Positions 7,160-61,169 are shown, numbered from the stretch's first letter. The stretch is DNA of 64,000 bases from an uncultured Bacilli bacterium (GCA_947629135.1 CANRCN010000001.1:411-64410), one strand, 5' to 3'. Numbers and translations are program-made. The notes: generated from the sequence alone by a model not told the origin.

Positions 7160-7167
7160 AATCCCTC

Positions 7168-35130: not shown

Positions 35131-36373
<1,243 letters not shown>

Positions 36374-44275: not shown

Positions 44276-44534
44276 TTTGTCTTGTATAAAATAAAAGTTA
44301 TTTTAAGTTAATATTATGATGATTTAGAATGATGTTAAAGGAATCTTAACTTATATTTCTTAGAAATTATTAGACGTTAATAACTATAAGGATTTATTAA
44401 AAAAACTTCCAAATGATAATAAATATGATTACAGAAGTATATATTTTTTAGGTACTAATTATTGCTTTATAATAGAAAAAAATATAAGTCTTTTATATGT
44501 TCGTTATAACTGAAAAATTATGTATGTTTTTCAG

Positions 44535-44563
44535 TTTACTTTTTTTATTAGACGTGTTAGAAT
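44535..44563 (+). promoter_or_regulatory. promoter, copy 1 of a duplicated promoter
   Basis: TTTACT -17 nt- TGtTAGAAT extended -10; same 'acgtgttagaatatt' core as at 50704-50725. Confidence 0.5.
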
Positions 44564-44588
44564 ATTGTTTGGAAGGTAAGTTTGGAGT

Positions 44589-46625
44589 ATGAAAACTATA
44601 TTAAAAAAAATTGATATCAAATTAGTTATTGCAGTTATTATACATTTTTTAATAACGTTTATTACAGATAGAAATATATTTATTTTTAAAGAAATAAATA
44701 TTACTAATTATATTTTGTGTAAAGTAGTATTGTTAGGATTATTAATATTATTATGGAAGTTTATATTTAAATTAATTCATAAAGATAAGAATGCTGTTGA
44801 TTATTTTAAAAAGTTTTTAATATACATAATTCCAATTTCTATTTTATTAGTTTTGTGTTGGCCAGGTAATTGGTTTGGACCAGATGTTGCTAATTTTTAT
44901 CAATTTGCAATTCGTGGCAATTTTGTATATTATCTTAATTACTTATCATCAGTTTTTTATATTATAGGTTTAATGTTCTTTCCAGTTCCAAGTGGTCCTA
45001 TTATTCTTTTAGCTATTTTATTTGGAATTGTATTTTCTTATTTAACTAAAAATCTATATGATATTTATAAAAGTAAACTTGTTTATTTAATGTTAATTCC
45101 ATTCTTTATGTTAAATACTTTATTTTATACTTTTTATGCTAATAGACCAATTATTTTTGGAATTATTTATTTATTATTAATTAGTATTATTTTACTTGAT
45201 AAAATTAAAAATAATAAATTAACTAATAAAAAAATTTTAGCTTTAATTATTTTAACAGGAGTCGCAGCCTATTGGAGAACTGAGAGTATTTATTTAATTC
45301 TTGCTATTCCTTTATTTATTTTTATAGTCTATAAATTAAAAGTAAATTTTAAAAACATTGCTAAGATCTTTGGTTTTACTATTTTAAGTTTTCTAGCTAT
45401 ATCATTACCTCAAAAAATATATGAATATAATTTTCATGATTATCCATTATCATCACGTAATGCAGCTATATATATTTTACCTTTATCTTATATGTTAACT
45501 AAAGATTTAAAGGGGAAAAATTTAGAAAGTAATTTAGCTAAAATTGATAAAGTTATAGGAATAGAAGAAATGAAAAAATATCCATCCTATAATGATACTT
45601 ATTGTATTTGGGAAAGTAATTGTAAAAAATTAGATTATACTAAAGAAGAATATAAAGAGTTTCAAAAAGCTTATTTTGATGTAATAATTAATAATTTTCC
45701 TGAATATTTAAAAACAAGAATGTTAACATTTGTAGGTGCAAGTGGTCTTTATAATAATACTTTTACAACTAAGAATTTATATAATGAAAATATAGAGACT
45801 TTATTTGAAAGAAAAGATACTAAACCATTTATTAATTATAAAATAAGGAAAGTTGTTTATTCAATTTTAGAAGGAAGAATTTCTGATAAAGGAAGATCTA
45901 TTCTTCCATATAATCTAACTAATAATTTAATAATACCTTTGTTATTTATTGGAATATTATTTATATATTCAATTGTAAAAAAGAAGTTATTTTACTTTTT
46001 GTTATCTGGGATGTTGATTGGTCATACTACGATAGTTTTCTTTACAGCTCCTGCTAACTATGCAATGTATTATTTTAATATTTATTTAACTGGATTAGTA
46101 GTTGGAGTTATGTTTATAATTGATTATATATATTATAAAAAGAATAAAAAATGTTATTTATTAGATATAAAGAAAAAAAATAAAAAGAAAGTAAAAAGGG
46201 AGGAATCAAAGATAAAAAAATTAATAGTTCAAGCTTTTAAGTTCTTTGGAATATCTGGAATAGGATGGTTAATTGATTTTACAACTTATACAGTTATGAC
46301 AAGTTTACTAAAAATAGATATCATGATTGCTAATATTATAAGTTCATTTTTAGGAATTACTTTTGTCTATTTAGTTTCAACGAGAAAATTATTTCAGAAT
46401 AATAGTAAATATAATTTAAAAGTAAAATATATTGCTTATATTTTATATCAAGTTGTTTTTGTATTATTAGTTTCTTATATAATGACATTTTTAAAAGAAT
46501 ACTTATTAGGATTTGATGTTAAATTAATAAGTGATTATGTCAATATAATAACTAAAATTGTAGTAACTCCATTTACAATGGTAATAAATTTTATAGTTAT
46601 GAAAAATTTAATAGAGAGGATTTAA
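44589..46625 (+). CDS. large polytopic GT-C-like membrane protein (GtrC/YfhO-like by context) fused to a C-terminal GtrA-family domain
   Basis: ~14 TM helices; first 520 aa paralogous to 50747..52330 (identical blocks 'WPGNWFGPDVANFY', 'PVPSGPIILLAILFGIVFSYLTKNLYDIYKSKLVYLMLIPFFMLNTLFYTFYANRPII'); last ~140 aa have 4 TM with GtrA-like pattern; a GT2 gene follows immediately. Confidence 0.5.
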   Translation: MKTILKKIDIKLVIAVIIHFLITFITDRNIFIFKEINITNYILCKVVLLGLLILLWKFIFKLIHKDKNAVDYFKKFLIYIIPISILLVLCWPGNWFGPDVANFYQFAIRGNFVYYLNYLSSVFYIIGLMFFPVPSGPIILLAILFGIVFSYLTKNLYDIYKSKLVYLMLIPFFMLNTLFYTFYANRPIIFGIIYLLLISIILLDKIKNNKLTNKKILALIILTGVAAYWRTESIYLILAIPLFIFIVYKLKVNFKNIAKIFGFTILSFLAISLPQKIYEYNFHDYPLSSRNAAIYILPLSYMLTKDLKGKNLESNLAKIDKVIGIEEMKKYPSYNDTYCIWESNCKKLDYTKEEYKEFQKAYFDVIINNFPEYLKTRMLTFVGASGLYNNTFTTKNLYNENIETLFERKDTKPFINYKIRKVVYSILEGRISDKGRSILPYNLTNNLIIPLLFIGILFIYSIVKKKLFYFLLSGMLIGHTTIVFFTAPANYAMYYFNIYLTGLVVGVMFIIDYIYYKKNKKCYLLDIKKKNKKKVKREESKIKKLIVQAFKFFGISGIGWLIDFTTYTVMTSLLKIDIMIANIISSFLGITFVYLVSTRKLFQNNSKYNLKVKYIAYILYQVVFVLLVSYIMTFLKEYLLGFDVKLISDYVNIITKIVVTPFTMVINFIVMKNLIERI

Positions 46626-46629
46626 TTGT

Positions 46630-47439
46630 ATGGAAAAGATAATGGTTTTTATACCAATGTATAATTGTGAAAAACAAATAGTTAGAGTTTTAAAGCAATT
46701 TGATAAAGAGGTTTTAAAATATATTGAAGAAATTGTAATTATTAATAATAGAAGTACTGATAATGGAGAAGAAGCAGTTATTAATTTTAGTAAAGAAAAT
46801 AAAATAGATAAGAAACTAACTTTACTTAGAAATGATGAAAATTATAATTTAGGTGGATCTCACAAAGTAGCTTTTGATTATGCAATTAAGAATAACTATG
46901 ATTATTTAATTGTTTTACATGGTGATGATCAAGGAAGTATTCATGATTTGTTACCATATCTTAAAAATAAAGAATATGAAAATTATGATTCTTTACTTGG
47001 TTCAAGATTTTTAAAAGAATCTAAACTAGAAGGATATTCTAAGTTTAGAACTTTTGGAAACATTGTTTATAATTTTGCTTTTTCCATATTACTTGGGAAT
47101 AAAGTAAAAGATTTAGGTGCAGGATTAAATATGTATAAAGTTGAATCTTTAAAAAATAAATATTATATTAAATATCCTGATAGATTAACTTTTAATTGTT
47201 ATATGTTACTTGCTATTAAATCTTATAAACAAAATGTAAAATATTTTCCAATAACATGGAGAGAAGATGATCAAGTTTCTAATGTTAAAATGGTATCACA
47301 AGCTTTTAAAACAATAATGATACCAATTAAATATTTTTTTAGAAGAAGTAAGTATTTAGAAAGTGAGCATAGAGATAAGATAATAGAAGATTATACTGCA
47401 AGTTGTATATATAGTATTGGAGGTAAAAATGGAAAATAA
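46630..47439 (+). CDS. GT2-family glycosyltransferase, GtrB/DPM1-like without C-terminal TM helices
   Basis: 'MVFIPMYNCEKQIVRVLKQF' GT-A start, 'LHGDDQGS' DxD-type motif. Confidence 0.65.
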   Translation: MEKIMVFIPMYNCEKQIVRVLKQFDKEVLKYIEEIVIINNRSTDNGEEAVINFSKENKIDKKLTLLRNDENYNLGGSHKVAFDYAIKNNYDYLIVLHGDDQGSIHDLLPYLKNKEYENYDSLLGSRFLKESKLEGYSKFRTFGNIVYNFAFSILLGNKVKDLGAGLNMYKVESLKNKYYIKYPDRLTFNCYMLLAIKSYKQNVKYFPITWREDDQVSNVKMVSQAFKTIMIPIKYFFRRSKYLESEHRDKIIEDYTASCIYSIGGKNGK

Positions 47440-48175
47440 GGTACATTTAATCATGCCTATGGGAGGAGCAGGCTCAAGATTCTTTAAAAATGGATATGTT
47501 ATGCCTAAACCATTAATTGAAATAAATGGTAAACCATTTTTATATTGGTCAACTATGTCAATTAAAAAATATATAGATTTAGAAGATATAACTTTTGTTA
47601 TTCTTCAAGAACATATTGATAATTTTGAAATTGATAAAGTTATTTTAAAATATTTTCCTGATGCAAAATTTGTAGTATTGAAGGAAATGTTTAAAGAAGG
47701 ACCTGTATTAACTTGTAAGGCAGGACTCGAGAATATTAATGATGATCTTCCAATTATTTTTAATGATTGTGATCATTATTTTAAGAGTAGTAGTTTTAAT
47801 GATTTTTGCAATAGTGAAGATAAAAGTTTGGTTGATGGAGCTTTAGTAACTTTTGAAGCTGATGATCCTAAGTTTAGCTATGTTGAATTAGACGAAAATG
47901 GAAATGCTAAACGAACTGTTGAAAAAGAAGTTATTAGTAATGATGCGATTTGTGGAGCATATTATGTTAAAAATAAAAAAATATTCTTAGATAGTGTTTC
48001 AGAGTACATGGATAATTGTAATTACAAAGAATTTTTTGTAAGTGGTATTTATAACATTATGATAAAAAATGGTTTAACTGTAAAAAACTTTAGAGTAGAT
48101 TTTCATATTCCATTTGGAACTCCTGAAGAATATGAACTTGCTAAAGAAAAAGTAGAATTTGAGGAAATAAAATGA
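47429..48175 (+). CDS. sugar-phosphate/alcohol-phosphate nucleotidyltransferase (NTP_transferase fold, LicC/RmlA-like)
   Basis: 'LIMPMGGAGSRF...MPKPLIEINGKPFL' nucleotidyltransferase G-rich loop; GGAGG RBS 5 nt before ATG 47429. Confidence 0.6.
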   Translation: MENKVHLIMPMGGAGSRFFKNGYVMPKPLIEINGKPFLYWSTMSIKKYIDLEDITFVILQEHIDNFEIDKVILKYFPDAKFVVLKEMFKEGPVLTCKAGLENINDDLPIIFNDCDHYFKSSSFNDFCNSEDKSLVDGALVTFEADDPKFSYVELDENGNAKRTVEKEVISNDAICGAYYVKNKKIFLDSVSEYMDNCNYKEFFVSGIYNIMIKNGLTVKNFRVDFHIPFGTPEEYELAKEKVEFEEIK

Positions 48176-50061
48176 TTTACTTCACATTAATTCTTGCAAT
48201 TATCTTCATGGTAATTGGTCATTATTTTAAAGTTTATAGGTTAAAACAATTTATAGAAATTTATGAAAAGCCAAATACTCCTAGATTACTTCAAGCTTTA
48301 TCTATAAGTTATGTTATCAATTTCTTTGTTCCGTTTAGATTAGGAGACATCTTTAGAGCTTGGTGGGCTGGAAGAAAGATGAAAAATGGAGTATCATTTT
48401 CTTTGACAACGGTTATTGTTGATAGAATTTTAGATGTTATAGTAGTTGCTTTAATCTTTTTTAGTTTTTATCTATTAGGCTTTAAAGAAAAAGTAATTGA
48501 AAGTTCTATTTATTTTTATATAATAGGTGGTTCAGTTTTATTAATATTATTATTTTTAGGAATGAAATTTAGTAAATATATAAAAATATCAATTATGAAA
48601 TTTGCTAGAATATTTAATACTAATATTGAACTTAGGATATTAAAATTTACTTGGTATATTATCACAGCCTTTAAAGACTTAATATCAAAACTTAAAAAAA
48701 GCGAATTGTTAATTAATACAATTGTTATGTGGTTCTTTTATTTAGGTTCATATTCTTTATTTGCTTTAACAATGCGATTTTCAGGAAGTAATACAAGTTT
48801 AGTTGATATATTTACTTTATTATTTTCAAAGAATAGTTTTGATCTTTCAACTGGTGCTTTTTCAATTAGTAATTATTATATGGTAATTTATTTATTAGTG
48901 CCATTAGTTATTTTGTTAATTTTATCTTTATTTAAGACTAAAGAAAAAGGTAAAAATTATGTAAAAAATAAATATTTAGAGTTATTACCTCAATTAAATT
49001 CTTCAGATAAATTAGTTTTTTTAGAAGGATATTTCAGTGCTCGTTCTAGAGAATATTTTAATAATTATGTTATGTTAAATCGAGATATTTCTATTATTCA
49101 AGATTTTTCAGCAGGTAGTAATGCTACAACTATGCTTTGTACTTATGATAATAAAATGTTTTTTAGAAAATATAGTTTTGGTAAAGATTCTTCTAAATTA
49201 TATGAACAAATTAAATGGTTAAAAGAACATCAAAAAGTTATACCTTTAACTAAGGTTTTAAATGTTAAAAGAGGCAATGAATATTGTTCTTATGATATGC
49301 CATATTTTAATAATGCTATTAGTTGCTTTAACTATGTTCATTCTACACCTATTAATAAATCATGGCCAGTTCTTGAAAAGGCTCTTAATACTATAGGTGA
49401 AAATTTACATACTAAAAATTTAGTAAATGCTGATATTAAAAAAATAGATGAATATATAGAAAGTAAAGTTATAAATAATTTAAAAAAAATTGAAAATGGT
49501 AATTATATTAAACCTTTACTTAAATATAATTATTTAATTATAAATGGTAAAAAGTATCATAATTTAAATTATTTTATGAAATATTTAACAAAAGAATACT
49601 TAGAAGAGTTGTTTAAAAATGATATGTATTCTGATATTCATGGGGATTTTACAATTGAAAATATTATTTGTTTTAATGATAAAGATGATTTTTATATAAT
49701 AGATCCAAATACTGGTAATGTTCATGATTCTCCAAATCTTGATTATGCTAAGTTATTACAATCTTTACATGGTGGATATGAATTTTTAATGAATACAAAA
49801 AGTGTTTCAGTTTCTGAAAATAATATTAATTATTTATTTACTAAATCAGCTGTATATGATGAATTGTATAATAAATATCATAAGTATTTATGTGATAAGT
49901 TTGATAGAATAAAAGTAAAAAGTATTTATTTTCATGAAATTATTCATTGGTTAAGGTTATTACCTTATAAAATAGAAAAAAATGGTGAAAGACAAGTATT
50001 ATTTTATGCAGGACTTATTATAGTATTAAATGATGTAATAGAAATGTTTGGTGATGATTAA
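48172..50061 (+). CDS. fusion protein: N-terminal flippase-like (LPG-synthase-TM/UPF0104) membrane domain + C-terminal choline/aminoglycoside-kinase-fold (APH/ChoK) kinase
   Basis: N-terminus 'RLGDIFRAWWAGRK' with ~8 TM; C-terminus 'DIHGDFTIENIICFNDKDDFYIIDPN' matches the H-G-D-x-x-x-x-N ... D-x-N catalytic/Mg loops of ChoK/APH kinases. Confidence 0.55.
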   Translation: MIYFTLILAIIFMVIGHYFKVYRLKQFIEIYEKPNTPRLLQALSISYVINFFVPFRLGDIFRAWWAGRKMKNGVSFSLTTVIVDRILDVIVVALIFFSFYLLGFKEKVIESSIYFYIIGGSVLLILLFLGMKFSKYIKISIMKFARIFNTNIELRILKFTWYIITAFKDLISKLKKSELLINTIVMWFFYLGSYSLFALTMRFSGSNTSLVDIFTLLFSKNSFDLSTGAFSISNYYMVIYLLVPLVILLILSLFKTKEKGKNYVKNKYLELLPQLNSSDKLVFLEGYFSARSREYFNNYVMLNRDISIIQDFSAGSNATTMLCTYDNKMFFRKYSFGKDSSKLYEQIKWLKEHQKVIPLTKVLNVKRGNEYCSYDMPYFNNAISCFNYVHSTPINKSWPVLEKALNTIGENLHTKNLVNADIKKIDEYIESKVINNLKKIENGNYIKPLLKYNYLIINGKKYHNLNYFMKYLTKEYLEELFKNDMYSDIHGDFTIENIICFNDKDDFYIIDPNTGNVHDSPNLDYAKLLQSLHGGYEFLMNTKSVSVSENNINYLFTKSAVYDELYNKYHKYLCDKFDRIKVKSIYFHEIIHWLRLLPYKIEKNGERQVLFYAGLIIVLNDVIEMFGDD

Positions 50062-50615
50062 TGAAAAAATTAGCAATGATTGATTTAGATGGAACTTTGT
50101 TTGATACTAACGAAGTAAATTATTATGCTTATAAAGAATCTTTAAATGAAAAAGGATTTGATCTTGAGTATGAACATTATAAAAATGAATGTAATGGTAG
50201 ATATTATAAAGTATTTTTACCTGATATAGTTAATAATGATGAAGAGGTTATGGAATATGTTCATAAAAGAAAAAAAGAATTATATGAAAAATATTTGGAT
50301 AAGGCTATTGTAAATGAACATTTATTTAATATTTTAGAAAGTATAAAAGATAAATACTATTTAGCTTTAGTTACAACAGCTTCTAAAAAGAATACTTATG
50401 ATATTTTAAAATATTTTAAAAAAGTTGAATTATTTGATTTAATTTTAACTCATGATGATATTGAAAAGCCAAAGCCAGATCCTGAAGGATTCAAAAAAGC
50501 TTTAGATTATTTTAAGATTGATGCTAAAGATGCAATCGTTTTTGAAGATTCTAATGTTGGAATAGAAGCAGCTAAGAAAGTTGGAGCTACAATTTTTAAA
50601 ATAGAAAATTTTTAG
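50061..50615 (+). CDS. HAD-IA hydrolase (beta-phosphoglucomutase/phosphatase-like)
   Basis: 'MIDLDGTLFDT' HAD motif I and 'FEDSNVGIEAAKKVG' motif IV. Confidence 0.7.
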   Translation: MKKLAMIDLDGTLFDTNEVNYYAYKESLNEKGFDLEYEHYKNECNGRYYKVFLPDIVNNDEEVMEYVHKRKKELYEKYLDKAIVNEHLFNILESIKDKYYLALVTTASKKNTYDILKYFKKVELFDLILTHDDIEKPKPDPEGFKKALDYFKIDAKDAIVFEDSNVGIEAAKKVGATIFKIENF

Positions 50616-50694
50616 AAATAGATATTAGAAAGATATAAAAATTAACAATGTTCTTTTTTAGAATTTGTTAATTTTTTTATTTAAAAAAGATTAG

Positions 50695-50723
50695 TTTACA
50701 ATTTCTTTTATACGTGTTAGAAT
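50695..50723 (+). promoter_or_regulatory. promoter, copy 2 of the duplicated promoter
   Basis: TTTACA -17 nt- TGtTAGAAT; identical core to the copy at 44558. Confidence 0.5.
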
Positions 50724-50746
50724 ATTACTAGAAGGGTAAGGTAGAA

Positions 50747-52330
50747 ATGAAAAAAAAATTAAAAAAAATTAATTTTAAATTGATAATTATTGTTTTAATA
50801 CATTTTGTAATAACATTTTTTACAGATAAAAATATATTTGTTTTTTCTGATATAAATATTATTAATTATATTTTTTGTAAAATTATATTTTTATTAGTTT
50901 TATATTTATTTTGGAAATTTATCTTTAAATTAATAGACAAAGATAAAGTAATGATTAGTTATTTTAAAAAGTTTTTAATATATATGATACCTATTAGTAT
51001 ATTATTAATTTTATGTTGGCCAGGTAATTGGTTTGGGCCAGATGTTGCTAATTTTTATGAATATGCAATTCATGGTAATTTCTTATATTATCTTAATTAT
51101 TTATCATCAGTTTTTTATATGATAGGTTTTATGTTTTTTCCAGTTCCAAGTGGACCTATTATTCTTTTAGCTATTTTATTTGGAATTGTATTTTCTTATT
51201 TAACTAAAAATCTATATGATATTTATAAAAGTAAACTTGTTTATTTAATGTTAATTCCATTCTTTATGTTAAATACCTTATTTTATACTTTTTATGCTAA
51301 TAGACCAATTATATATGGAGTTTTTTACTTGCTATTAATTAGTATTATTTTACTTGATAAAATTAGAAATAACAAATTAACAAATAAAAAATTTCTTGTA
51401 TTAATGATTTTAACAGGAATATCTTCCTATTTTAGAAGTGAAAGTATTTATTTAATTCTTGCTATTCCTTTATTTATTTTTATAGTTTATAAATTAAAAG
51501 TAAATGTTAAAAACATTGCTAAGATATTTGGATTTACAGTTTTAGCTTTTTTAATAGTTGCAATGCCTCAAAAGATATATGAATATAAAAATGTTGAAGA
51601 TCAATATACTCGTAATTTACCAATATATATTACACCTTTATCTTATATGTTAACTAAGGATTTAAAAGGTAAAAATTTAGAAAGTGATTTAGCTAAAATC
51701 GATAAAGTTATTGGAATAGAGGAGATGAAAGAATATCCATCTTATATAGATGCTTTTTGTGTTTGGAATAATGATTGTTTAAAGACAGGCTATACTAAGG
51801 AAGAATATAAGGAGTTTCAAAAAGCTTATTTTGATGTAATAAAAAATAATATACCAGAATTTATAATGACTAAAACTTTAACTTTTGCTAATGCAAGTGG
51901 GGTTTATGGAAGTACTTTTACAACTAAAAATTTATATAATGAAGATAATCAAATGTTATATAAGAGAAAAGATACTAAACCTTTTATAAATTATAAAGTA
52001 AGAAGATTTACATATTCACTTCTTGAAGGAAGATTAACTGATAAATGGCAACCTAATATTTTATATAGAATTTTTAATAATTTATTTGTATCATTCTTAA
52101 TCATTGGAATAATATTTATATATTCAATTATTAAAAAGAAATTATTTTACTTTTTATTATGTGGAATGTTAATTGGACATGCTGTTATAGTTTTCTTTAC
52201 AGCACCAGCTAGTTATTTTATGTATTATTTTAATGTTTATTTATGTGGGTTAGTTCTTGGAGTAATATTTGTAATAGATTATATATATTATAAAAAACAT
52301 AAAAAAAGTTATGTTTTAAAGAACAAGTAG
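50747..52330 (+). CDS. GT-C-like polytopic membrane protein, paralogue of 44589 without the GtrA fusion
   Basis: 527 aa, long identical blocks with the 44589 product. Confidence 0.5.
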   Translation: MKKKLKKINFKLIIIVLIHFVITFFTDKNIFVFSDINIINYIFCKIIFLLVLYLFWKFIFKLIDKDKVMISYFKKFLIYMIPISILLILCWPGNWFGPDVANFYEYAIHGNFLYYLNYLSSVFYMIGFMFFPVPSGPIILLAILFGIVFSYLTKNLYDIYKSKLVYLMLIPFFMLNTLFYTFYANRPIIYGVFYLLLISIILLDKIRNNKLTNKKFLVLMILTGISSYFRSESIYLILAIPLFIFIVYKLKVNVKNIAKIFGFTVLAFLIVAMPQKIYEYKNVEDQYTRNLPIYITPLSYMLTKDLKGKNLESDLAKIDKVIGIEEMKEYPSYIDAFCVWNNDCLKTGYTKEEYKEFQKAYFDVIKNNIPEFIMTKTLTFANASGVYGSTFTTKNLYNEDNQMLYKRKDTKPFINYKVRRFTYSLLEGRLTDKWQPNILYRIFNNLFVSFLIIGIIFIYSIIKKKLFYFLLCGMLIGHAVIVFFTAPASYFMYYFNVYLCGLVLGVIFVIDYIYYKKHKKSYVLKNK

Positions 52331-52357
52331 TTATAATTGAAGTTAAGGTGAGTTTGT

Positions 52358-53338
52358 ATGAAAGAAGTAAAAAAAGAATATAAAGGTATAGACATAATGA
52401 AATTTTTATTAGCTATAGTTATTATAATTTATCATACTCGTTTATATACTGGTAATAATCATACTTTAAAAACGATTTATGATCTTTTGTTAAGTTCTGC
52501 TGTTCCTTTATTTTTTATAACAAGTGGATTTTTTGTATATGATAAATATAAACAAGAAGAAAGGATAACTAAGTTATTAAAGAAAAATATTAAATTATAT
52601 CTCATTTGGAATCTTATTTATCTTCCAATTGCTATATATGGAGATGTTATTAATAATTATTCAGTTGGAAAATCAATTTTGTTATATATACGTGAATTTT
52701 TATTCTTAGGAGAACATTATTTTAGTTGTCAAATTTGGTATTTATTGTCATTTATATATTCTTTAATAATATTATTGGTGTTAAAAAAATTAAAATTAAA
52801 TGATATAAAAATATTTATAATAACTATTTTAATATATGTTTTTGCAACGGTGATGGTATATTTAACTTCTAATAATTTTGATTATAAATTTGTTAAATTA
52901 TTTAGTAGTATTTTTTCAACAGGAAAAGTATTTTTAGGACCAGCTATAGTTACACTTGGAATGTTTATTAATAAGTATAAAGATAAGATAAAAATATCTA
53001 AAATTGTATTATTATTAATGATTGTTTTATGTACTGTTGTATCAATTATATTTCCAAATAAAATAAGTAGAATAATGCTTTATATATTTGTATTCTTGTT
53101 AGTTATGAATTTGAATAATATTAAATTTAATACTGTTAATTTTAGAAAGTGTAGCATTATATTTTATTTTATTCATATGATTAATTTGTTTATTTATATG
53201 TTAATAGTTGGTATAAATAATACATATGGAATATATAGTTTTATATTTACACTTATTACTTGCATAATAGAATCAGTTATTATAATAGCAATTCAAAATA
53301 AATGGAATCCTAAAGTGTTAAAAGAAATATTTAGTTGA
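52358..53338 (+). CDS. acyltransferase-3 family membrane O-acyltransferase, paralogue of 40083 lacking the poly-G N-terminal extension
   Basis: 'KGIDIMKFLLAIVIIIYHT' motif; near-identical C-terminus ('NIKFNTVNFRKCSIIFYFIHMINLFIYMLIVGINNTYG'). Confidence 0.6.
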   Translation: MKEVKKEYKGIDIMKFLLAIVIIIYHTRLYTGNNHTLKTIYDLLLSSAVPLFFITSGFFVYDKYKQEERITKLLKKNIKLYLIWNLIYLPIAIYGDVINNYSVGKSILLYIREFLFLGEHYFSCQIWYLLSFIYSLIILLVLKKLKLNDIKIFIITILIYVFATVMVYLTSNNFDYKFVKLFSSIFSTGKVFLGPAIVTLGMFINKYKDKIKISKIVLLLMIVLCTVVSIIFPNKISRIMLYIFVFLLVMNLNNIKFNTVNFRKCSIIFYFIHMINLFIYMLIVGINNTYGIYSFIFTLITCIIESVIIIAIQNKWNPKVLKEIFS

Positions 53339-53359: not shown

Positions 53360-53866
53360 TTACCAATATTTACTGATATAATCTTTAATTAAATTATAAC
53401 GTTCAAATACTGATAATACTATTTTTTTATCACTTGTAATTGTTAAAAATTCTTTTTTAGTAACAAATTTAATATCTGAAACTTCTTGAGTTTGTAATTT
53501 TAATTTAGTAAGATCTACTTTGATATTGCTAATATAAATATCAACAAATTGGTGTTTATAAAGTGTAGTAGTTATTAGTTTAAAATCTTTATTAGTTAAA
53601 TTTAAACCAATTTCTTCTTGTATTTCTCGAATTAGAGTTTCTTGACTTTCTTCATTTGCTAATGAACATCCACCTGGAACTTCCCATTCTAAAGGATGAG
53701 ATTTATTTATACTTCTCTTAGTAATTAATAACTTATGATTATTAAATATCCAAATTTCAACTCCAACGTTATATTCTTCTTGAAGTAAAAGAGTATTTCT
53801 TTCTTTAGTATAGTTTAATTTTTCACGATTACTATTATAAACATCAAATAATTCCATTAAAATCAC
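53360..53866 (-). CDS. Nudix hydrolase
   Basis: Nudix box 'PGGCSLANEESQETLIREIQEEIGL' (G-x5-E-x7-R-E-x2-E-E-x-G). Confidence 0.7.
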   Translation of the reverse strand: MILMELFDVYNSNREKLNYTKERNTLLLQEEYNVGVEIWIFNNHKLLITKRSINKSHPLEWEVPGGCSLANEESQETLIREIQEEIGLNLTNKDFKLITTTLYKHQFVDIYISNIKVDLTKLKLQTQEVSDIKFVTKKEFLTITSDKKIVLSVFERYNLIKDYISKYW

Positions 53867-53929
53867 CTAAATATATCTTATCATAAATAGGAAAATATGA
53901 TAAGATAAATATGAAAGGAATTAATACTT

Positions 53930-54361
53930 ATGGATATAATTGTTAAAACTCGTGTTGGATCTTATGGAATTATTATTCACGAAGAGAAAATAGCTTTAGT
54001 AAAAAAAGCTAAAGGTGGTTATAAAGGAAAGCTTGATTTACCTGGTGGGGGAGTAGAGCATGATGAAAATTTAGTTGAAGCTTTAAAAAGAGAAATTAAG
54101 GAAGAAGCTGGAATAGATATTAGTAGTTATAAATTACTTGATGCTACCACTACTAATATTAAATGGAAAATGGCTGAAGAAGTAATGGAAGATTTACAAC
54201 AAATAGGAATTTTATATGTATGTGAGACTAAAGATTTTAATTTAAAAAGTGATGCTGATGGATTGGATTCAGAAGGTGCTAATTGGTATGTAATAAAAGA
54301 TTTAAATAAAGATAATTTAACCCCTTTTGCTAGATATGCTTTAGAGATGTTAGGATATTAA
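53930..54361 (+). CDS. Nudix hydrolase
   Basis: Nudix box 'PGGGVEHDENLVEALKREIKEEAGI'. Confidence 0.7.
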   Translation: MDIIVKTRVGSYGIIIHEEKIALVKKAKGGYKGKLDLPGGGVEHDENLVEALKREIKEEAGIDISSYKLLDATTTNIKWKMAEEVMEDLQQIGILYVCETKDFNLKSDADGLDSEGANWYVIKDLNKDNLTPFARYALEMLGY

Positions 54362-54362
54362 G

Positions 54363-54839
54363 ATGGATATAAAAATAGAAACTGAAGAATTTAATTTTAA
54401 ATTTAGAGTGTCTGGAGTAATTATAAATAACGATAAAGTTTTATTAGTTGATATGGATAAAAGTGGATTTCTTTGCTTTCCTGGGGGATATGTTGAATTA
54501 GGCGAAGAAAGTCAAAAAGCTATTGAAAGAGAAGTTTTAGAAGAAGTAAATATTAAAGTTAAAGTTTTGAAATATTTAGGTGTTATAGAGAACTATTTTA
54601 TTAATAAGTATCAAAGAAAAATTCATGAAATTTGTTTTTATTATTTATTAGAACCTGTTGATGAAATAGAAACTTTAAATTTTAGTTTAGTAGAAAAAGG
54701 TGAATATCGTGATACAATGCTAGATTTTAAGTGGATTAATATAGAAAATTTAGATAAATATGATATAAGGCCTAAAATTATGAAAGATATCTTAAAGGAA
54801 AATAAGATAGAGTTTAAACATTTAGTAGTAAAAGAATAA
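54363..54839 (+). CDS. Nudix hydrolase
   Basis: Nudix box 'PGGYVELGEESQKAIEREVLEEVNI'. Confidence 0.7.
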   Translation: MDIKIETEEFNFKFRVSGVIINNDKVLLVDMDKSGFLCFPGGYVELGEESQKAIEREVLEEVNIKVKVLKYLGVIENYFINKYQRKIHEICFYYLLEPVDEIETLNFSLVEKGEYRDTMLDFKWINIENLDKYDIRPKIMKDILKENKIEFKHLVVKE

Positions 54840-54866
54840 AGATTAAATAAGTTGTGGTGATGTTAT

Positions 54867-56510
54867 ATGCTTGAAATAAATATGAGCAAGGTTATAAAAA
54901 ATTATGGATTTAAAAATATTTTAAATGGATTTGATTTAGAAGTAACAACAGGAGAAAAAATAGGATTAATTGGACAGAATGGTTGTGGTAAAACCACATT
55001 ATTTAAATTAATCACAAAAGAGGAAAATATAGATGATGGTAATATAAGTGTTAGAAAAGGTGCTAATATACGATTACTTTCTCAAATGCCTCCAGTAGTT
55101 AATGATAGTTGCAGTGTTAAAGATATTTTAACGAGAGATTTTAAAATAATATTTGATATTGAAAAAACTATGAAAGAATTAGAAAAACAAATGTCTCTTG
55201 TAGATTCTAAAGAAATGGATAAAATTCTTGATAAATATGGAAAATTACAAATTAAATTTATGAATTTAGATGGTTATAATGTTGATGCTAAGATAAGTGA
55301 ATTATGTAATAAATTTCGAATAGATGAAGACATGTTAGAAAGAAAGTTTAATACATTATCAGGTGGAGAAAAGACTATTGTTAATTTAGCTTCGATTATG
55401 CTATCTAGTCCAGATATTTTACTTTTAGATGAACCTACTAATAATTTAGATATAGATACTTTAGAGTGGTTAGAATCTTTTTTAAAAAATTATCCTGGAA
55501 CGATTATCTTGTGTTCACATGACAGATATTTTTTAGATAAAATAGTTTCTAAAATTGTATTAATGGAAAGAGGAAAATCTGAAATATTTCATGGAAATTA
55601 TTCCTATTATTTAAAAGAAAATGAGAAAAGAATTTTAGCAGAATTTCAAGATTATAAAGATCAACAGAAAATGATAGAAGCAATGAAAAGAAAGATTAAA
55701 CAGTTACAAGAATTTGGTAAATTAGCATATCCTGGAGGAGAATCTTTCTTTAAAAGAGCTGCTAGTATTCAAAAAAGGCTAGATAAAATAGAATTATTGG
55801 ATAGACCTGAAATTAAAAAAGAAGTACCTTTAAATTTTCAAATGAATGATAGATCTGGAAAACAAGTGTTGTTAGTTAGAAATTTTGATTTAAATATTCA
55901 AGATAAAGAGTTATTAAAAAATATTTCTTTTGATATTACCTTTAAAGATAGAATTTGCCTAATGGGAAAAAATGGAAGTGGTAAATCAACTTTAATTAAA
56001 TATATAATGAATATTTATGAAAATAATATAGAAAATGAAAAAGTTAAAATTGGGAGTAATGTATTAATAGGATATATTCCTCAAACAATCACTTTTGAAA
56101 ATGATAATGCAACTATCTTGGAAATAGCAAGAAAATATTTTGATGGATCTGAAACTTATTTAAGAGCATCTTTAGCAAAGTTCATGTTTAATGGGGAAAA
56201 TGTATTCAAAAGAGTAGGAAAATTATCTGGTGGTGAGAAAGTTAGATTAAAATTATTTGAATTAATGCAAAAAAATGTTAATTTATTAATTATGGATGAA
56301 CCAACTAATCATATTGATATTACAACAAGGGAGGTTTTAGAAGATGCTTTGAAAGATTATCATGGTACAATTTTGTTTATTTCACATGATAGATATTTTA
56401 TAAATGAAATAGCTAAAAAGATATTTTATATTGAAGATAAAAAAATTAAAGAATATTTAGGAAATTATGATGATTATTATCAAAAAAATAAAAATAATTA
56501 TAATTTGTAG
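54867..56510 (+). CDS. ABC-F family ATPase (tandem ABC domains, no TM domain)
   Basis: Two Walker A motifs ('GQNGCGKTT', 'GKNGSGKST'), two ABC signatures ('LSGGEKT', 'LSGGEKV'), linker between them, no membrane domain. Confidence 0.8.
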   Translation: MLEINMSKVIKNYGFKNILNGFDLEVTTGEKIGLIGQNGCGKTTLFKLITKEENIDDGNISVRKGANIRLLSQMPPVVNDSCSVKDILTRDFKIIFDIEKTMKELEKQMSLVDSKEMDKILDKYGKLQIKFMNLDGYNVDAKISELCNKFRIDEDMLERKFNTLSGGEKTIVNLASIMLSSPDILLLDEPTNNLDIDTLEWLESFLKNYPGTIILCSHDRYFLDKIVSKIVLMERGKSEIFHGNYSYYLKENEKRILAEFQDYKDQQKMIEAMKRKIKQLQEFGKLAYPGGESFFKRAASIQKRLDKIELLDRPEIKKEVPLNFQMNDRSGKQVLLVRNFDLNIQDKELLKNISFDITFKDRICLMGKNGSGKSTLIKYIMNIYENNIENEKVKIGSNVLIGYIPQTITFENDNATILEIARKYFDGSETYLRASLAKFMFNGENVFKRVGKLSGGEKVRLKLFELMQKNVNLLIMDEPTNHIDITTREVLEDALKDYHGTILFISHDRYFINEIAKKIFYIEDKKIKEYLGNYDDYYQKNKNNYNL

Positions 56511-56522
56511 ATTGGAGTTATT

Positions 56523-57209
56523 ATGGAAAGAATAAAATTAGAAAATGTTAAGAATTTTAGAGATTTAGGTGGATATTTAACAATTGATAATAAAATAACT
56601 AATTTTAATAAAATTTATAGAAGTTCTTTACCAACTTATTTAACAGATAAGGAAATAGAATTTTTTAGAAGAAATAATTTAACAACAATTATAGATTTGA
56701 GAACTAAAGAAGAATTGTCTAAGAAAAAGAATATTTTTAGTACTTTAAAGGAATTTAATTATTATAATATTCCTTTAAGAGGAGGAGATTTTCCTAAAAA
56801 AGAAAAAGATATTCCTTATGGATATTTAGATATAATAGATGATTTAGATAGTGTAAATTTGGTGTTTAAAACTATAAGGGATAGTAAGGGAAGTATTTTA
56901 ATAAATTGTAATGCTGGTAAAGATAGAACTGGGGTTATTTGTATGTTAATTCTATTATTATGTAATGTTTTAGAAGATGAAATTTTAGTAGATTATCAAG
57001 TTTCATATACTTATTTAAGAGAGGTTATTAGAAAAATGCATCTTGATAATCCTAAAATGCCTAAGTATTTAGGAAATTCTAAAATGGAATATATGGAAGA
57101 TACATTAAAATTATTTAATTATAAATATGAATCTATTAATAAATATATGTCATTGCTTGGATTTAATAAAGATGATATGGATAAAATAGTTAAAAAATTA
57201 ATGGATTAA
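56523..57209 (+). CDS. protein tyrosine/dual-specificity phosphatase-like (Y_phosphatase3-type)
   Basis: CX5R P-loop 'CNAGKDRTG'. Confidence 0.6.
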   Translation: MERIKLENVKNFRDLGGYLTIDNKITNFNKIYRSSLPTYLTDKEIEFFRRNNLTTIIDLRTKEELSKKKNIFSTLKEFNYYNIPLRGGDFPKKEKDIPYGYLDIIDDLDSVNLVFKTIRDSKGSILINCNAGKDRTGVICMLILLLCNVLEDEILVDYQVSYTYLREVIRKMHLDNPKMPKYLGNSKMEYMEDTLKLFNYKYESINKYMSLLGFNKDDMDKIVKKLMD

Positions 57210-57235
57210 AAAAATATAAAGAGAGATGATTATTT

Positions 57236-57667
57236 ATGAATAGATTGATAGCTCATGGTTTAATAAAAATAAATGGTAAGTATTTATTGATTAAAAGAAC
57301 TAAAGAAAAAAGAGAAAAAGCTAATTTGTTACCTGATTATTGGGATATACCAGGTGGAATGGTAGAATTAGGGGAGTTACCAAGGGAGGCTGTTGTTAGA
57401 GAAACCAAAGAGGAAGTTAACTTGGATATTGAAGTTAAAGATATTTTGCATGAAGATAGTAATTATGATAAAGAAAAGGATATTGTATTTACTAGATTAG
57501 TATATTGGTGTGAATTATTGGATAGCGAAGATGCTTCTAATATTGTTTTACAAGAAGATGAGCATAGTGAATATAGACTTGTTAATGATTTAGAAGAAAT
57601 GAAAAATGAAAAAATAGTAGATTATTTAATTGATACTATTAGAAATTTAAATAAAAAATATAAGTAA
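57236..57667 (+). CDS. Nudix hydrolase
   Basis: Nudix box 'PGGMVELGELPREAVVRETKEEVNL'. Confidence 0.7.
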   Translation: MNRLIAHGLIKINGKYLLIKRTKEKREKANLLPDYWDIPGGMVELGELPREAVVRETKEEVNLDIEVKDILHEDSNYDKEKDIVFTRLVYWCELLDSEDASNIVLQEDEHSEYRLVNDLEEMKNEKIVDYLIDTIRNLNKKYK

Positions 57668-57710: not shown

Positions 57711-57992
57711 ATGAATAATAATGGATATCGTATAGTTGTAGATGCAGGACATGGAGGAAGCGATCCTGGTGCTGTATCAGGTGGCTTACGAGAAAAAGAT
57801 TTTACTTTACAAGCAGCTAATTATATGTATAATAGATTTAAAGAACTTGGTGTTCCTGTTGCAATTACAAGAGATGATGATACTACTTTAACTAGAGCTG
57901 AAAGATTATCTACTATGACAGATACTTTTGGAAATGATTCTAAAGTTATAGTTTTATCTAATCACATAAATGCAGGAGGTCGGGATGCATAA
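57711..57992 (+). pseudogene. 5' fragment (93 codons) of an N-acetylmuramoyl-L-alanine amidase (Amidase_3, CwlD-like); the rest of the gene is absent here
   Basis: 'IVVDAGHGGSDPGAVSG...EKDFTL' and 'LSNHINAGG' match the first two zinc-ligand regions of Amidase_3, which are normally followed by ~130 more residues; the ORF stops right after HINAGG and unrelated AT-rich DNA follows. Confidence 0.55.
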
Positions 57993-58078
57993 TATGTGAT
58001 TAAATTACTTTGATAAGCTCCTATTTTACTGTTCCATCTGGAAAAATTAATGTAAAAATGCTAAAATTTTAGTAGGAG

Positions 58079-58300
58079 TTGTTAACTATGAAAATCAAAT
58101 GTAAGAAGTGTAATGATATAATAGAAAATAAAGAATTCAATAAAGAAGCCTGGTGTTCTTGTAAAAATGTGGGATTATTTAATGACTACATTCTTTATGG
58201 AAAAAATAATAAGTTAAAAAAAGATAGTTATATTGATTTAACACCTAAAAAATCTATAGAAGAAGTAATTGAACAAATAAATAATTTAGAAAACAAATAA
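58079..58300 (+). CDS. small zinc-ribbon protein (CxxC...CxC)
   Basis: 73-aa ORF 'KCKKCNDII...WCSCKN'; followed by a terminator. Confidence 0.3.
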   Translation: MLTMKIKCKKCNDIIENKEFNKEAWCSCKNVGLFNDYILYGKNNKLKKDSYIDLTPKKSIEEVIEQINNLENK

Positions 58301-58303
58301 ACT

Positions 58304-58328
58304 GAATTGTGGAAACACAATTTTTTTA
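58304..58328 (+). terminator. Rho-independent terminator
   Basis: stem 'aattgtg'/'cacaatt', GAAA loop, T7. Confidence 0.45.
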
Positions 58329-58647
58329 TGCAAATGAAATGATAAAAATATGAAATAATAATATAAAAATAAAAATTACATTTTAATGAGGTGATTAACT
58401 TTTAAATGTAAAGGATTATTTAAAAGTAGAAGAAAAGAAAAAATAAGCTATCTTATAAATAAAGACTATTTAAGTAGTTTAGATTATATTTTACAAATTT
58501 AAAATAATTTAATAATAAAATACAAAATAGCGAAGATAAGTTATATAAAATTTAAAGAATTATTAATTAAATAATCGAGTTTTTTAGATAATTATGGTAT
58601 AATATGATAAAAATTAAATTAATTTTTAAAATTTTTGAGGTAGTTTT

Positions 58648-58856
58648 ATGAAAAATGAGATTAATATGACAAAAGATGAATTAATAAAAAAGATATTAAG
58701 ATATGATTTAACAGATGATGAAAAAAAAAGCTTTTGATAAAATTGTAGCATCATTTGATGAAATTTATGATTTAGATAGTGATGAATCTAAAACAAAGAT
58801 TTCTAGATCTATTGCTATATATATGATATATAAGGAAAAAGTGTATAAGTAGGTAT
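58648..58856 (+). pseudogene. ~69-codon small ORF interrupted by an A9 homopolymer (frameshift)
   Basis: TGgTATAAT extended -10 at 58595-58603, GAGG RBS, ATG 58648; frame stops at 58735-58737 after A9 (58721-58729); the -1 frame continues to TAG at 58854-58856. Confidence 0.25.
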
Positions 58857-59101
58857 GTGAAAATGTAAACATATATGAGTATTTAATACTTTAAAGTCGT
58901 TCTTGAGATAAAAAATAATGAATGATAAATTATTAGTTAGAATAGCAAAGAGTTAATTAATGAAAATTAAACTTTAAATATCTAAAAAATAGGAGATGCA
59001 ATTTGTTATAATTATTTTCTTGTAAAAATAGTTGAAGCTAGTGATAAATTTATAAGAAGTAAATTTAAAATATTAAAATAATTAGAAGGAGTGATGATAA
59101 A

Positions 59102-60835: not shown

Positions 60836-60867
60836 TTTAGTAAAAAATTATAAATAAGTGTTTGAAA

Positions 60868-60890
60868 GGGAATAAAAATTCTCTTTTTTT
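60868..60890 (+). terminator. possible Rho-independent terminator after the AIPR gene
   Basis: stem 'gggaat'/'attctc' (one G-U), AAAA loop, T7. Confidence 0.35.
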
Positions 60891-61169
60891 ATACTTTTTA
60901 GAAAAAATTTAAACCATTAAGATAGTTTTTAAATGGTATTAGAGCTATTACCTAACAAGAAAATGAGTAGTCTTTTAATCAAATATAAACATAAAATTTA
61001 TGGAGGTGAATTTTAAAAAATGAATATAAAAGAAACTTTCGATAATGATAAAAATTTGGTTGATTTGATAGAAGAATATTTAAAAATAATGCTATTTAAA
61101 GAGAGAGACTCCTAGTTATGAATTATAGTGAATATACTTGTGAAGTTATGCATTTAAAAGGAGTTGTAA

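Follow-up and report, generated by a model that had tools for sequence, protein, structure and literature searches.

A predicted extracytoplasmic glycan-decoration cassette, with a recurrent fusion to a GtrA-family domain, beside a capsule locus of an uncultured Bacilli bacterium

Introduction

The closest described relatives of the system considered here are the Gtr clusters (GtrA, GtrB and a type-specific Gtr) of Shigella and Salmonella phages and of E. coli CPS-53 (yfdG-yfdH-yfdI). They combine a GtrA-family protein with four transmembrane (TM) helices, a family 2 glycosyltransferase (GT2) of the polyprenyl-phosphate sugar synthase type and a polytopic transferase that shows no sequence conservation between types, so that a conserved AB pair is accompanied by a swappable third gene. 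Extracytoplasmic glycosylation of this GtrA/GtrB/GT-C type drives serotype conversion as well as phage and immune evasion. Here we describe a stretch of 64,000 nt from an uncultured Bacilli bacterium (GCA_947629135.1 CANRCN010000001.1:411-64410; the window), in which the region from 44.5 to 52.3 kb probably forms a self-contained cassette that would decorate a surface polysaccharide outside the membrane and that is appended to the 3' side of a Wzy-type capsule locus.

Several Gram-positive systems (CsbB/GtcA/YfhO, GtlA/GtlB, CsdAB-CD-EF/CflA and GacI/GacJ/GacK/GacL) share one logic, in which a cytoplasmic GT-A enzyme makes a C55-P-sugar, a flippase moves it across the membrane and an outer GT-C enzyme uses it. 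They draw on housekeeping UDP-Glc, UDP-Gal or UDP-GlcNAc. These multi-component systems provide a precedent for several GT-C enzymes sharing one donor or flippase (PMC8035078), and for a GT2 without an anchor of its own working with a small membrane partner (PMC8035078; bioRxiv 10.1101/180810). In archaea, AglD joins a GT2 to a domain of the UPF0104 family, which is predicted to be a flippase of glycosylation pathways, and is encoded beside PMT/STT3-like enzymes (PMC5898192). Finally, the pentofuranose systems (PPPRS, flippase and a GT136 GT-C enzyme) rely on a dedicated lipid-linked donor cassette with a HAD-family phosphatase step; their GT-C partner founded a new CAZy family, and they have spread across phyla and glycan types (PMC11127046). 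The general scheme that we propose below belongs to this well-known paradigm of Gtr and multi-component transmembrane glycosylation (PMC8035078; PMC11127046).

Results

Organization of the cassette

The cassette is encoded on the plus strand, and its genes from 44589 to 50615 are tightly packed or overlapping. We refer to its large polytopic protein as X. There are two copies in the window, one fused in frame before gtrA and one free-standing (X2), and neither is matched by any Pfam or NCBIfam model. The features are as follows.

44589..46169, plus strand: X domain, unclassified, with 12 predicted TM helices (aa 1-527 of a 678-aa fusion protein; whole open reading frame (ORF) 44589-46625)
46239..46610, plus strand: GtrA-family four-TM domain (aa 551-674 of the same fusion; PF04138)
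46630..47439, plus strand: soluble GT2 (269 aa), predicted polyprenyl-phosphate sugar synthase (PF00535)
47417..48175, plus strand: sugar-1-phosphate nucleotidyltransferase-like protein (NTPT; PF00483, E 1.4e-6)
48181..48822, plus strand: UPF0104/MprF-like TM domain of a 629-aa fusion (ORF 48172-50061; PF03706)
48967..50058, plus strand: protein-kinase-like small-molecule kinase domain of the same fusion (aa ~266-629; recognized by invariant motifs)
50061..50615, plus strand: HAD-IA hydrolase, beta-phosphoglucomutase/phosphatase-like (PF13419, E 1.9e-29)
50747..52330, plus strand: X2, unfused paralogue of X (527 aa; 75% amino acid identity to the X domain)

An earlier sequence-only reading of this DNA had described a Gtr-like module of four ORFs (44589-46625, 46630-47439, 50747-52330 and 52358-53338). 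All four are found at these positions and encode proteins of 678, 269, 527 and 326 aa. The list was incomplete, as it omitted the NTPT, the UPF0104::kinase fusion and the HAD hydrolase, which lie between the GT2 and the paralogue.

Comparison with described systems

Each of the three parts of a Gtr cluster has a counterpart here, and the swappable third gene is mirrored by X and by the non-X partners found in two further loci (L084 and L085, described below). The cassette nevertheless differs from Gtr clusters in that its GT2 does not have the two C-terminal TM helices of GtrB, its GtrA is fused to the transferase rather than being a free protein, X has no similarity to YfdI, and four conserved functions (NTPT, UPF0104, kinase and HAD) are added. 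In contrast with the phage-borne Gtr clusters, no homologue of X was found among 50,697 phage records, nor in plasmids by tblastn.

The proposed order of steps is that of the Gram-positive systems. In comparison with these, X is not a member of YfhO, PMT_2 or another Pfam GT-C family, and the cassette contains a dedicated sugar-activation trio and a UPF0104 domain where they use housekeeping UDP-sugars. In GacI/GacJ the partner of the soluble GT2 is the DUF2304 protein GacJ, whereas here it would be the GtrA domain. GacJ and Rv3632 were considered as precedents from the GtrA family itself and rejected, as both are DUF2304 proteins.

The same types of part occur in archaeal AglD and in DPMS of P. 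furiosus (5mlz), to which the profile of the cassette GT2 has its best single-domain match in the PDB and whose membrane domain shares the PF04138 name with GtrA in Pfam. Here, however, the GT2, the GtrA-like TM domain and UPF0104 are separate or otherwise fused (X::GtrA and UPF0104::kinase), and the proposed target is a bacterial polysaccharide rather than the protein N-glycan of archaea. The pentofuranose systems differ in that their donor synthase is a UbiA-type phosphoribosyltransferase that uses phosphoribosyl pyrophosphate, where this cassette has a GT2 that would use a nucleoside diphosphate (NDP)-sugar, a kinase and an NTPT.

We offer a more far-reaching reading only tentatively. The cassette would then be an undescribed cross-phylum system for glycan decoration with seven functions, in which X founds a new GT-C family, UPF0104 rather than GtrA is the flippase, GtrA is the membrane half of a split DPMS-type synthase, and a divergent kinase, the HAD and the NTPT make a dedicated and perhaps unusual NDP-sugar at the membrane. 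A GtrA that is the membrane half of a split synthase would explain its 1:1 fusion to a transferase. To our knowledge, flippase activity has never been demonstrated for GtrA.

The GtrA-family domain, the GT2 and the fusions

The domain at the C-terminus of the 678-aa protein had been assigned to the GtrA family, and this assignment holds: GtrA_DPMS_TM (PF04138) matches aa 551-674 (E 4.8e-9) with 36.9 bits, above its gathering score of 26.1. The domain is joined to X by a Lys-rich cytoplasmic linker (aa 520-550) and is orthologous to the free-standing 141-aa GtrA of related cassettes (145 bits to L002). Hydropathy analysis gives three hydrophobic regions at a 19-residue threshold. The AlphaFold (AF2) model of this part, for which the alignment was informed by three sequences, has four long helices at low confidence (predicted local distance difference test (pLDDT) below 50). 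Pairwise BLAST between the domain and E. coli YfdG was not significant.

The GT2 matches Glycos_transf_2 (PF00535, E 1.6e-15), and the NCBIfam models that it matches over the greatest length are those of AglJ, Dol-P hexose transferase and ArnC. When the family profile was compared with the PDB, the best single-domain matches were DPMS (5mlz, E 4e-13) and GtrB (5ekp, E 7e-11); ArnC (E 2e-8) was matched across positions 2-174. The GT2 and E. coli GtrB are 26% identical over 127 aa (E 2e-6). There is no TM segment in the GT2, the maximal 19-residue Kyte-Doolittle mean being 0.91, whereas E. coli GtrB, used as a control, gives two TM peaks (231-249 and 264-282). This bears out the description of the protein as a soluble GtrB-like GT2. 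Lacking an anchor of its own, it probably docks on the GtrA domain.

The fusion of X to GtrA, which had been called unusual, is real but is not a one-off. X::GtrA fusions recur in at least five cluster representatives. The ORF is uninterrupted in two independent metagenome-assembled genomes (MAGs; L001 and L005), and P0133, P0157 and P0054, which are distant members, likewise have the X::GtrA architecture. The recurrence of the same fusion in other genomes shows that it is not unique to the window. In L007 there is an intermediate arrangement, in which an X gene with a Lys-rich tail ends in a stop codon and is followed by gtrA and the GT2 gene. This suggests that X::GtrA arose by loss of the stop codon of an X gene located directly 5' of gtrA. 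Fusions to glycosyltransferases also occur: P0142 is X fused to a cassette-type GT2, and in P0033, P0039, P0048 and P0057 X is joined to GT2 domains of other kinds.

Conservation and genomic context of the cassette

A scan of GTDB genomes for X gave 78 loci. The close relatives of X are in uncultured low-G+C Bacilli, Clostridium and 'Tenericutes' gut MAGs, the closest being rabbit-gut 'uncultured Bacilli' MAGs. Distant relatives (22-33% identity) are mainly in Lachnospiraceae, with others in Saccharibacteria, WS6, Leifsonia and Chryseobacterium. In close relatives (L002, L003 and L008-L011) the genes have the canonical order GtrA-GT2-NTPT-UPF0104::kinase-HAD-X, and the window has this cassette plus an extra X fused in frame before gtrA. 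Distant Clostridia/Lachnospiraceae (L018 and L035) have the same functions, with UPF0104 and the kinase as separate adjacent genes. In L035 (Lachnotalea glycerini DSM 28816, 6215-9218) genes for CotH-kinase, VTC-domain and DUF4956 proteins are inserted between the HAD region and the NTPT-like gene.

Co-occurrence was measured with iterated hidden Markov models in the 50 loci where X is flanked on each side by 8 kb or more. The GT2 and the NTPT were each found in 38 of these, UPF0104 and the kinase each in 36, and GtrA in at least 27. The GT2 is much better conserved (290-510 bits) than X is in the same loci (100-190 bits).

The five-gene core GtrA-GT2-NTPT-UPF0104::kinase-HAD also occurs with polytopic partners other than X. 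In C. botulinum (L084; GCA_011013365.1, 4629-11500) the core includes an NDP-sugar epimerase/dehydratase gene and lies beside a phage replication-organizer (Phage_rep_org_N) gene. The cassette also reaches from Bacillota into the Gram-negative Brucellaceae: on plasmid pPB17_3 of Pseudochrobactrum algeriensis (L085; NZ_CP075350.1, 4155-10529) it adjoins rfbABCD and an IS3 element. The partners in the two loci differ from one another (532 aa and 450 aa across the two), belong to no Pfam family and do not match X. By analogy, this pattern resembles that of gtr clusters, in which conserved donor-side genes are combined with interchangeable acceptor-side transferases that are unrelated in sequence.

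The context bears on the acceptor. The same mechanism could serve a different polymer of the envelope, be it a teichoic acid (lipoteichoic or wall), a polysaccharide of the cell wall, or a protein of the S-layer or of another kind, with the capsule locus merely adjacent. In the window the cassette starts after a 495-nt non-coding gap with a promoter-like site of its own, and elsewhere it is portable, being found in WecA-type cell-wall polysaccharide loci (L002), on the rfb plasmid and beside the Phage_rep_org_N gene in C. botulinum; known systems can also serve several polymers with one flippase (PMC8035078). However, where context is available the cassette is usually in or abutting a polysaccharide biosynthesis locus, and in the window it sits between the acyl-modification genes of the capsule locus and a terminal acyltransferase-3 gene. 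We consider a different acceptor unlikely, although it is the best of the alternatives to decoration of the capsule polysaccharide by the same steps.

Topology and predicted fold of X

A word-index search found just 24 relatives of X, whereas a profile search gave 1451 cluster representatives, 626 of them below E 1e-30. Six residues are invariant: D99, in the motif WPGxWxxxD; R186; R230 and E232, in WRSE; and T486 and P488, in T486-A-P488. From predicted helices and the positive-inside rule, X is predicted to have 12 TM helices with both termini inside (N-in/C-in). The rule is satisfied at all loops, and the short cytoplasmic loops are all rich in Lys and Arg. The C-in end is independently required by the proteins in which a cytoplasmic GT2 is fused to the C-terminus of X. 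GtrA is itself N-in/C-in, which is compatible with this end of X. The external loops hold almost only invariant residues; D99, R186, R230 and E232 are predicted to be on the outer face, and residues 283-447 form a soluble domain of 165 aa that is predicted to be outside.

The AF2 model of the fusion has a pLDDT of 79 overall and above 90 in X; X2 alone was modelled with a pLDDT of 91.3 and a predicted template modelling score (pTM) of 0.91. We ran Foldseek against the PDB twice, with the fusion model and with X2 only. In the X2 run only GT-C_A enzymes reach a TMq of at least 0.25 or a probability of at least 0.2 (ALG12, probability 0.77, TM-scores 0.29/0.32; STT3B, 0.54, TM-score 0.32; STT3A, TM-score 0.34; and yeast STT3), whereas unrelated matches have TMq values of 0.08-0.15. 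The top-probability matches of the fusion model are ALG3 (0.44) and DPY19 (0.33). Thus the designation of X as GT-C-like is favoured by the best structural matches, all of which are GT-C enzymes, but none of these is significant and no GT-C Pfam family matches.

GT-C enzymes have 7-13 TM helices and an extracytoplasmic part that carries catalysis (PMC11127046), a description that X fits in its 12 helices and its predicted external domain. In GT-C_A enzymes there are two short helices in the first external loop, and the catalytic Asp or Glu is on the first of them (PMC13503287). X has short helices at 98-107 and 118-130 with D99 at the start of the first, and its arrangement of TM3, two short helices and TM4 resembles the GT-C_A description (PMC13503287). 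A catalytic Asp had been expected in the first external loop; D99 is located in the second, after TM3. The match to GT-C_A would hold if TM1-2 are an N-terminal addition, in which case TM3-TM9 would be a seven-helix module and the external domain with TM10-12 a variable one. In sequence, neither window copy belongs to the described GT-C families (PMT_2, YfhO, Glucos_trans_II, STT3 and others), and the X family profile had no meaningful match among PDB sequences. Taken together, the models suggest that X is likely to have a GT-C-like fold, and we regard it as a candidate lipid-sugar:glycan transferase.

Alternatively, X could be a polymerase or ligase of the Wzy/WaaL type, using undecaprenyl diphosphate (Und-PP)-linked donors, or a transporter or flippase for a lipid-linked sugar. 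Its lack of significant similarity to any GT-C enzyme is in keeping with this, as are weak Wzy_C matches in 2 of 61 diverse members (E 0.055) and tandem X-X fusions that resemble duplicated transporter architectures. However, the locus already has a Wzx (25481) and, by position, a candidate Wzy (23100), and the cassette already holds two flippase candidates. X is linked and fused to a DPMS/GtrB-type GT2 and to GtrA, which make or handle undecaprenyl phosphate (Und-P)-monosaccharides. Its large external domain and outward invariant Asp, Arg and Glu suit an enzyme better than a carrier, and the sole structural matches above noise are GT-C_A enzymes. A role as polymerase or transporter is thus quite improbable, and a GT-C-like transferase remains the preferred assignment.

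About 15 family members of ~720-800 aa (for example, P0024 and P0047) have an N-terminal extension of ~200-260 aa without a Pfam match. In P0024 the extension comprises an apparent signal-anchor helix, an external domain that is not helical and further TM helices. The extension may represent a carbohydrate-binding module.

The NTPT, UPF0104::kinase and HAD proteins

The likely true start of the NTPT is the ATG at 47429. It carries a GGAGSRF motif and has weak NCBIfam matches to RmlA, HddC and GlmU; the best PDB match is 4evw (E 1e-13). The HAD protein carries a DLDGTL motif and matches the NCBIfam PGMB-YQAB subfamily (E 1e-24, below its cut-off).

In the 629-aa protein, PF03706 (LPG_synthase_TM) matches aa 4-217 (E 7.7e-13; 49 bits against a cut-off of 33.4). 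There are over 1000 homologues of the whole fusion, including proteins of C. botulinum, C. beijerinckii and cultured Clostridium and Paenibacillus, and NCBI labels them only as 'flippase-like domain-containing protein'. UPF0104 is a separate gene in L018 and L035. An alignment of 41 homologues shows the invariant residues of the second half: a loop of S313 and G315-S316-N317-A318 (with A314 nearly invariant), K333, a catalytic loop H490-G-D-x-T-x-E-N497 (D492) and I510-D-P-N513 (D511). These motifs point to the signature of a protein-kinase-like small-molecule kinase in the C-terminal ~360 residues. The sole match of this part of the window protein itself is a weak one to Bud32, over the catalytic loop, while free-standing orthologues of the kinase match Choline_kinase (E 1.4e-4) and EcKL (E 8.8e-5) below the gathering score.

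NDP-heptose synthesis (HddA-GmhB-HddC) and MurNAc recycling (MupP-AmgK-MurU) combine an anomeric kinase with a HAD phosphatase and a nucleotidyltransferase, a logic that the route proposed here resembles. That the product here is an NDP-sugar is argued by the epimerase inside the C. botulinum cassette. A different reading of these genes is that the kinase and NTPT are LicA/LicC-like and activate choline, ethanolamine or a polyol phosphate to give a phospho-substituent, or that the kinase acts on a lipid (undecaprenol) and feeds the GT2. The weak Choline_kinase and EcKL matches and the fusion to a membrane domain would suit this reading, and in streptococci ATP stimulates Und-P-GlcNAc synthesis through a lipid kinase (10.1101/180810). 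On the other side, the best matches of the NTPT are sugar-1-phosphate enzymes (RmlA, HddC and GlmU; in the PDB, 4evw and HddC), a DPMS/GtrB-like GT2 requires an NDP-sugar, the C. botulinum cassette includes an NDP-sugar epimerase/dehydratase, and a LicD-type or phosphotransferase gene is absent. We judge this reading slightly less probable still than a polymerase or transporter role for X, and retain supply of an NDP-sugar as the function of the trio.

Duplication of X and the promoter-like sites

The downstream unfused paralogue was correctly recognized in the sequence-only reading: X2 is 75% identical to the fused X domain over 526 aa. At the DNA level, the repeat search (families D1-D4) and blastn show that 44533-46163 and 50693-52318 are duplicated, with 82.6% identity over 1632 nt. 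Three features belong to this duplication.

44533..46163, plus strand: duplicated segment, copy A, consisting of 56 nt of upstream sequence and the X domain (by blastn against 50693-52318)
44535..44563, plus strand: promoter-like site 1, TTTACT-N14-TGTTAGAAT (17-nt spacer, TAGAAT with TG extension; ends 26 nt before the ATG)
50695..50723, plus strand: promoter-like site 2, TTTACA-N14-TGTTAGAAT (17-nt spacer, TAGAAT with TG extension; in the 131-nt spacer between HAD and X2, within duplicated copy B)

The ratio of nonsynonymous to synonymous divergence (dN/dS) between X and X2 is 0.35 and the family-invariant residues are all kept in both, which suggests that both copies are functional and under purifying selection. 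The external loop and TM4-5 of the two copies share 87-100% identity, whereas the external domains are 67% and the first two helices 65% identical. In codons 90-186 dS is 0.07-0.13, in comparison with 0.43-0.58 elsewhere, and ~120 nt are 98-100% identical within 44856-45146 and 51014-51304 (codons ~90-186). This pattern indicates a gene-conversion tract over the conserved core. Identity to P0001 is 79% for the fused copy. X2 has its closest relative in P0002, the X::GtrA of L005, with 81% identity. As each copy is nearer to the allele of another genome, two allelic lineages appear to have been brought together, rather than a tandem duplication having occurred recently. The sequence-only reading had suggested alternative specificities for the two copies. 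Divergence mainly in the external domain, together with purifying selection on both copies, fits alternative acceptor specificities.

It had also been claimed that the same promoter core drives both copies. The motifs are present, but their sharing is a by-product of duplication. The exact composite pattern has two matches, against 0.17 expected by chance, and this excess arises because both lie in the duplicated segment, which begins (44533 and 50693) 2 nt 5' of the -35 hexamers (44535 and 50695). We therefore rejected the pair as evidence of co-regulation: the shared core is part of the first 56 nt of the duplicated segment and cannot count as a separate sign of common regulation. In this DNA of 20% G+C, generic sigma-70-like sites show no enrichment (105 found; 115.7 expected from shuffled sequence). 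There is a homologous site, TG-n-TAAAAT, in the same place upstream of X::GtrA in L005, and TGgTATAAT in L007. These two sites give modest phylogenetic support for a real promoter that travels with head-position X genes. X2 has the 56-nt leader of head-position X genes, whereas canonical tail-position X genes start at most 15 nt after HAD and have no such site.

The weakest alternative, that X2 and its promoter are a neutral recent duplication without distinct function or that X::GtrA is an assembly or sequencing artefact, is very improbable, for although there is a near-identical tract (dS 0.07 in codons 136-186) and duplication does explain the promoter similarity, neutrality is opposed by the 25% protein divergence, the dN/dS of 0.35, the intact invariant residues, the greater closeness of the copies to P0001 and P0002 than to each other and the recurrence of two-X loci and X-X fusions, and an artefact by the uninterrupted ORF in two independent MAGs and in P0133, P0157 and P0054.

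Pairs of X are a recurrent arrangement. There are two X genes per locus in L012, L014, L040, L045 and L051, and P0025, P0027 and P0041 (about 1020-1075 aa) are head-to-tail X-X tandems in a single polypeptide. An A9 run (50750-50758), among just four runs of nine or more A residues in the 64 kb, lies right after the ATG of X2, and the head copy has an A8 run (44606-44613) a few codons in. These runs could be a slipped-strand on/off switch, or plain Lys codons.

Capsule locus and neighbouring genes

The window is very A+T-rich (~20-25% G+C). A plus-strand Wzy-type capsule or exopolysaccharide locus spans ~11.6 kb to 53.3 kb; its final 9 kb, with the proposed decoration cassette and a terminal acyltransferase-3 gene, follow the 495-nt gap after an SGNH gene. 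The order of the locus is as follows.

Start, plus strand: Wzz/CpsC, CpsD and CpsB, then a Polysacc_synt_2 dehydratase, a DegT aminotransferase and a Bac_transf initiating transferase
Middle, plus strand: GT4 enzymes, a pyruvyl transferase and Wzx, then ATP-grasp enzymes and a UDP-glucose dehydrogenase
Late, plus strand: MBOAT, acyltransferase-3, thiolase, FabG-like reductase and SGNH esterase
52358..53338, plus strand: acyltransferase-3 (326 aa), probable glycan O-acyltransferase, the last gene of the locus (PF01757 Acyl_transf_3, E 1.4e-17)

The candidate Wzy is a 409-aa ORF without a Pfam match. The terminal acyltransferase-3 had been counted as a member of the module; its ORF and domain are real, but none of 82 related loci carries an orthologue and it is therefore placed outside the conserved cassette. 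Directly 3' of the cassette region there is a convergent NUDIX gene.

Between 38602 and 44094 the late genes are MBOAT (38602), acyltransferase-3 (40083), thiolase (41119), a short-chain dehydrogenase/reductase (SDR) resembling FabG/acetoacetyl-CoA reductase (42287) and an SGNH/GDSL esterase (43171). A similar block (acyltransferase-3, 3-hydroxyacyl-CoA dehydrogenase, thiolase and SDR) lies 5' of X::GtrA in L001. The block in the window suggests glycan acylation with a 3-hydroxybutyryl-type group. An FrhB/F420-dehydrogenase-like gene is present as two overlapping ORFs (Fer4 and FrhB_N, 35131-35526; FrhB_C, 35474-36373), and its counterpart in L002 is a single 900-aa fusion with a pyruvyl transferase; the split could be a frameshift or mark a pseudogene.

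Downstream of the capsule locus (53360-57667) there are four NUDIX hydrolase genes (53360 on the minus strand, 53930, 54363 and 57236), which flank genes for an ABC-F ATPase and a tyrosine-phosphatase-family protein. Bordering the locus is a probable mobile or defence island (57711-62756), which encodes a truncated Amidase_3 fragment of 93 aa, an AIPR protein of the abortive-infection type (59102) and, at 61170, a large serine recombinase. No Rfam families were found in the window.

Discussion

We propose the following sequence of events for the cassette. The kinase-like domain, HAD and NTPT would supply a dedicated NDP-sugar. The soluble GT2, docked on the four-TM GtrA domain, would move the sugar to undecaprenyl phosphate, and the lipid-linked sugar would be flipped by GtrA, by the MprF-like UPF0104 domain or by both. 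X and X2 would then transfer the sugar to the polymer outside, where the invariant D99, R186, R230/E232 and TAP motif and the 165-aa domain are predicted to face. The donor-side core is nearly identical in the two paralogues, which diverge in the external domain and the N-terminal helices; most likely, both would attach one sugar, but at two acceptor positions or in two linkages. The idea of an extracytoplasmic Gtr-like module, already put forward in the sequence-only reading, is favoured by the GtrA domain, the DPMS/GtrB-like GT2, the predicted outward residues of X and linkage in 38 of 50 loci; the original list of parts was incomplete, too much had been read into the promoter pair, and the acyltransferase falls outside the module.

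A number of results weigh against the proposal. For X, neither Foldseek run gave a significant match (E at least 0.37, the best being 0.37-0.65; TM-scores at most 0.34); no GT-C Pfam family was matched in 60 of 61 diverse members scanned, the sole PMT_2 match being weak (E 0.008); comparison of the X profile with E. coli YfdI/GtrS by hhalign gave a probability of 0.8%, that is, no similarity; and the conserved acid D99 follows TM3, not TM1. For the kinase, the domain of the window protein has no Pfam match at E 0.01 or below, neither the single sequence of the fusion nor the 41-sequence profile had a meaningful match in the PDB, and it is unusual for a soluble-sugar kinase to be joined to a membrane domain. 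The linkage is incomplete, as 12 of the 50 loci have no cassette-type GT2 at 200 bits or more within 10 kb (L015, at 180 bits, is among them). The near-identity of the core of X and X2 is not clean evidence of a shared donor because it is partly due to gene conversion. Additionally, no terminators that would delimit transcription units were found inside the cassette. Having weighed these points, we still regard extracytoplasmic decoration of the surface polysaccharide as the probable function of the cassette.

Literature searches for the cassette (GtrA with choline kinase, nucleotidyltransferase and HAD; PF03706 with GtrA) gave nothing relevant, and neither a family model nor literature was found for the X family or the UPF0104::kinase protein. 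We could not find a description of the X family, of the constant association of GT2, GtrA, UPF0104, kinase, HAD and NTPT, or of the fusion patterns.

The presence of a second flippase candidate in a cassette whose GtrA is fused to a transferase offers a way to separate the roles of 'flippase' and 'synthase anchor'. The modular partners, whether X or not, would illustrate how a single donor pathway is redirected towards different acceptors, and identification of the sugar would reveal an uncharacterized surface epitope of gut Bacillota.

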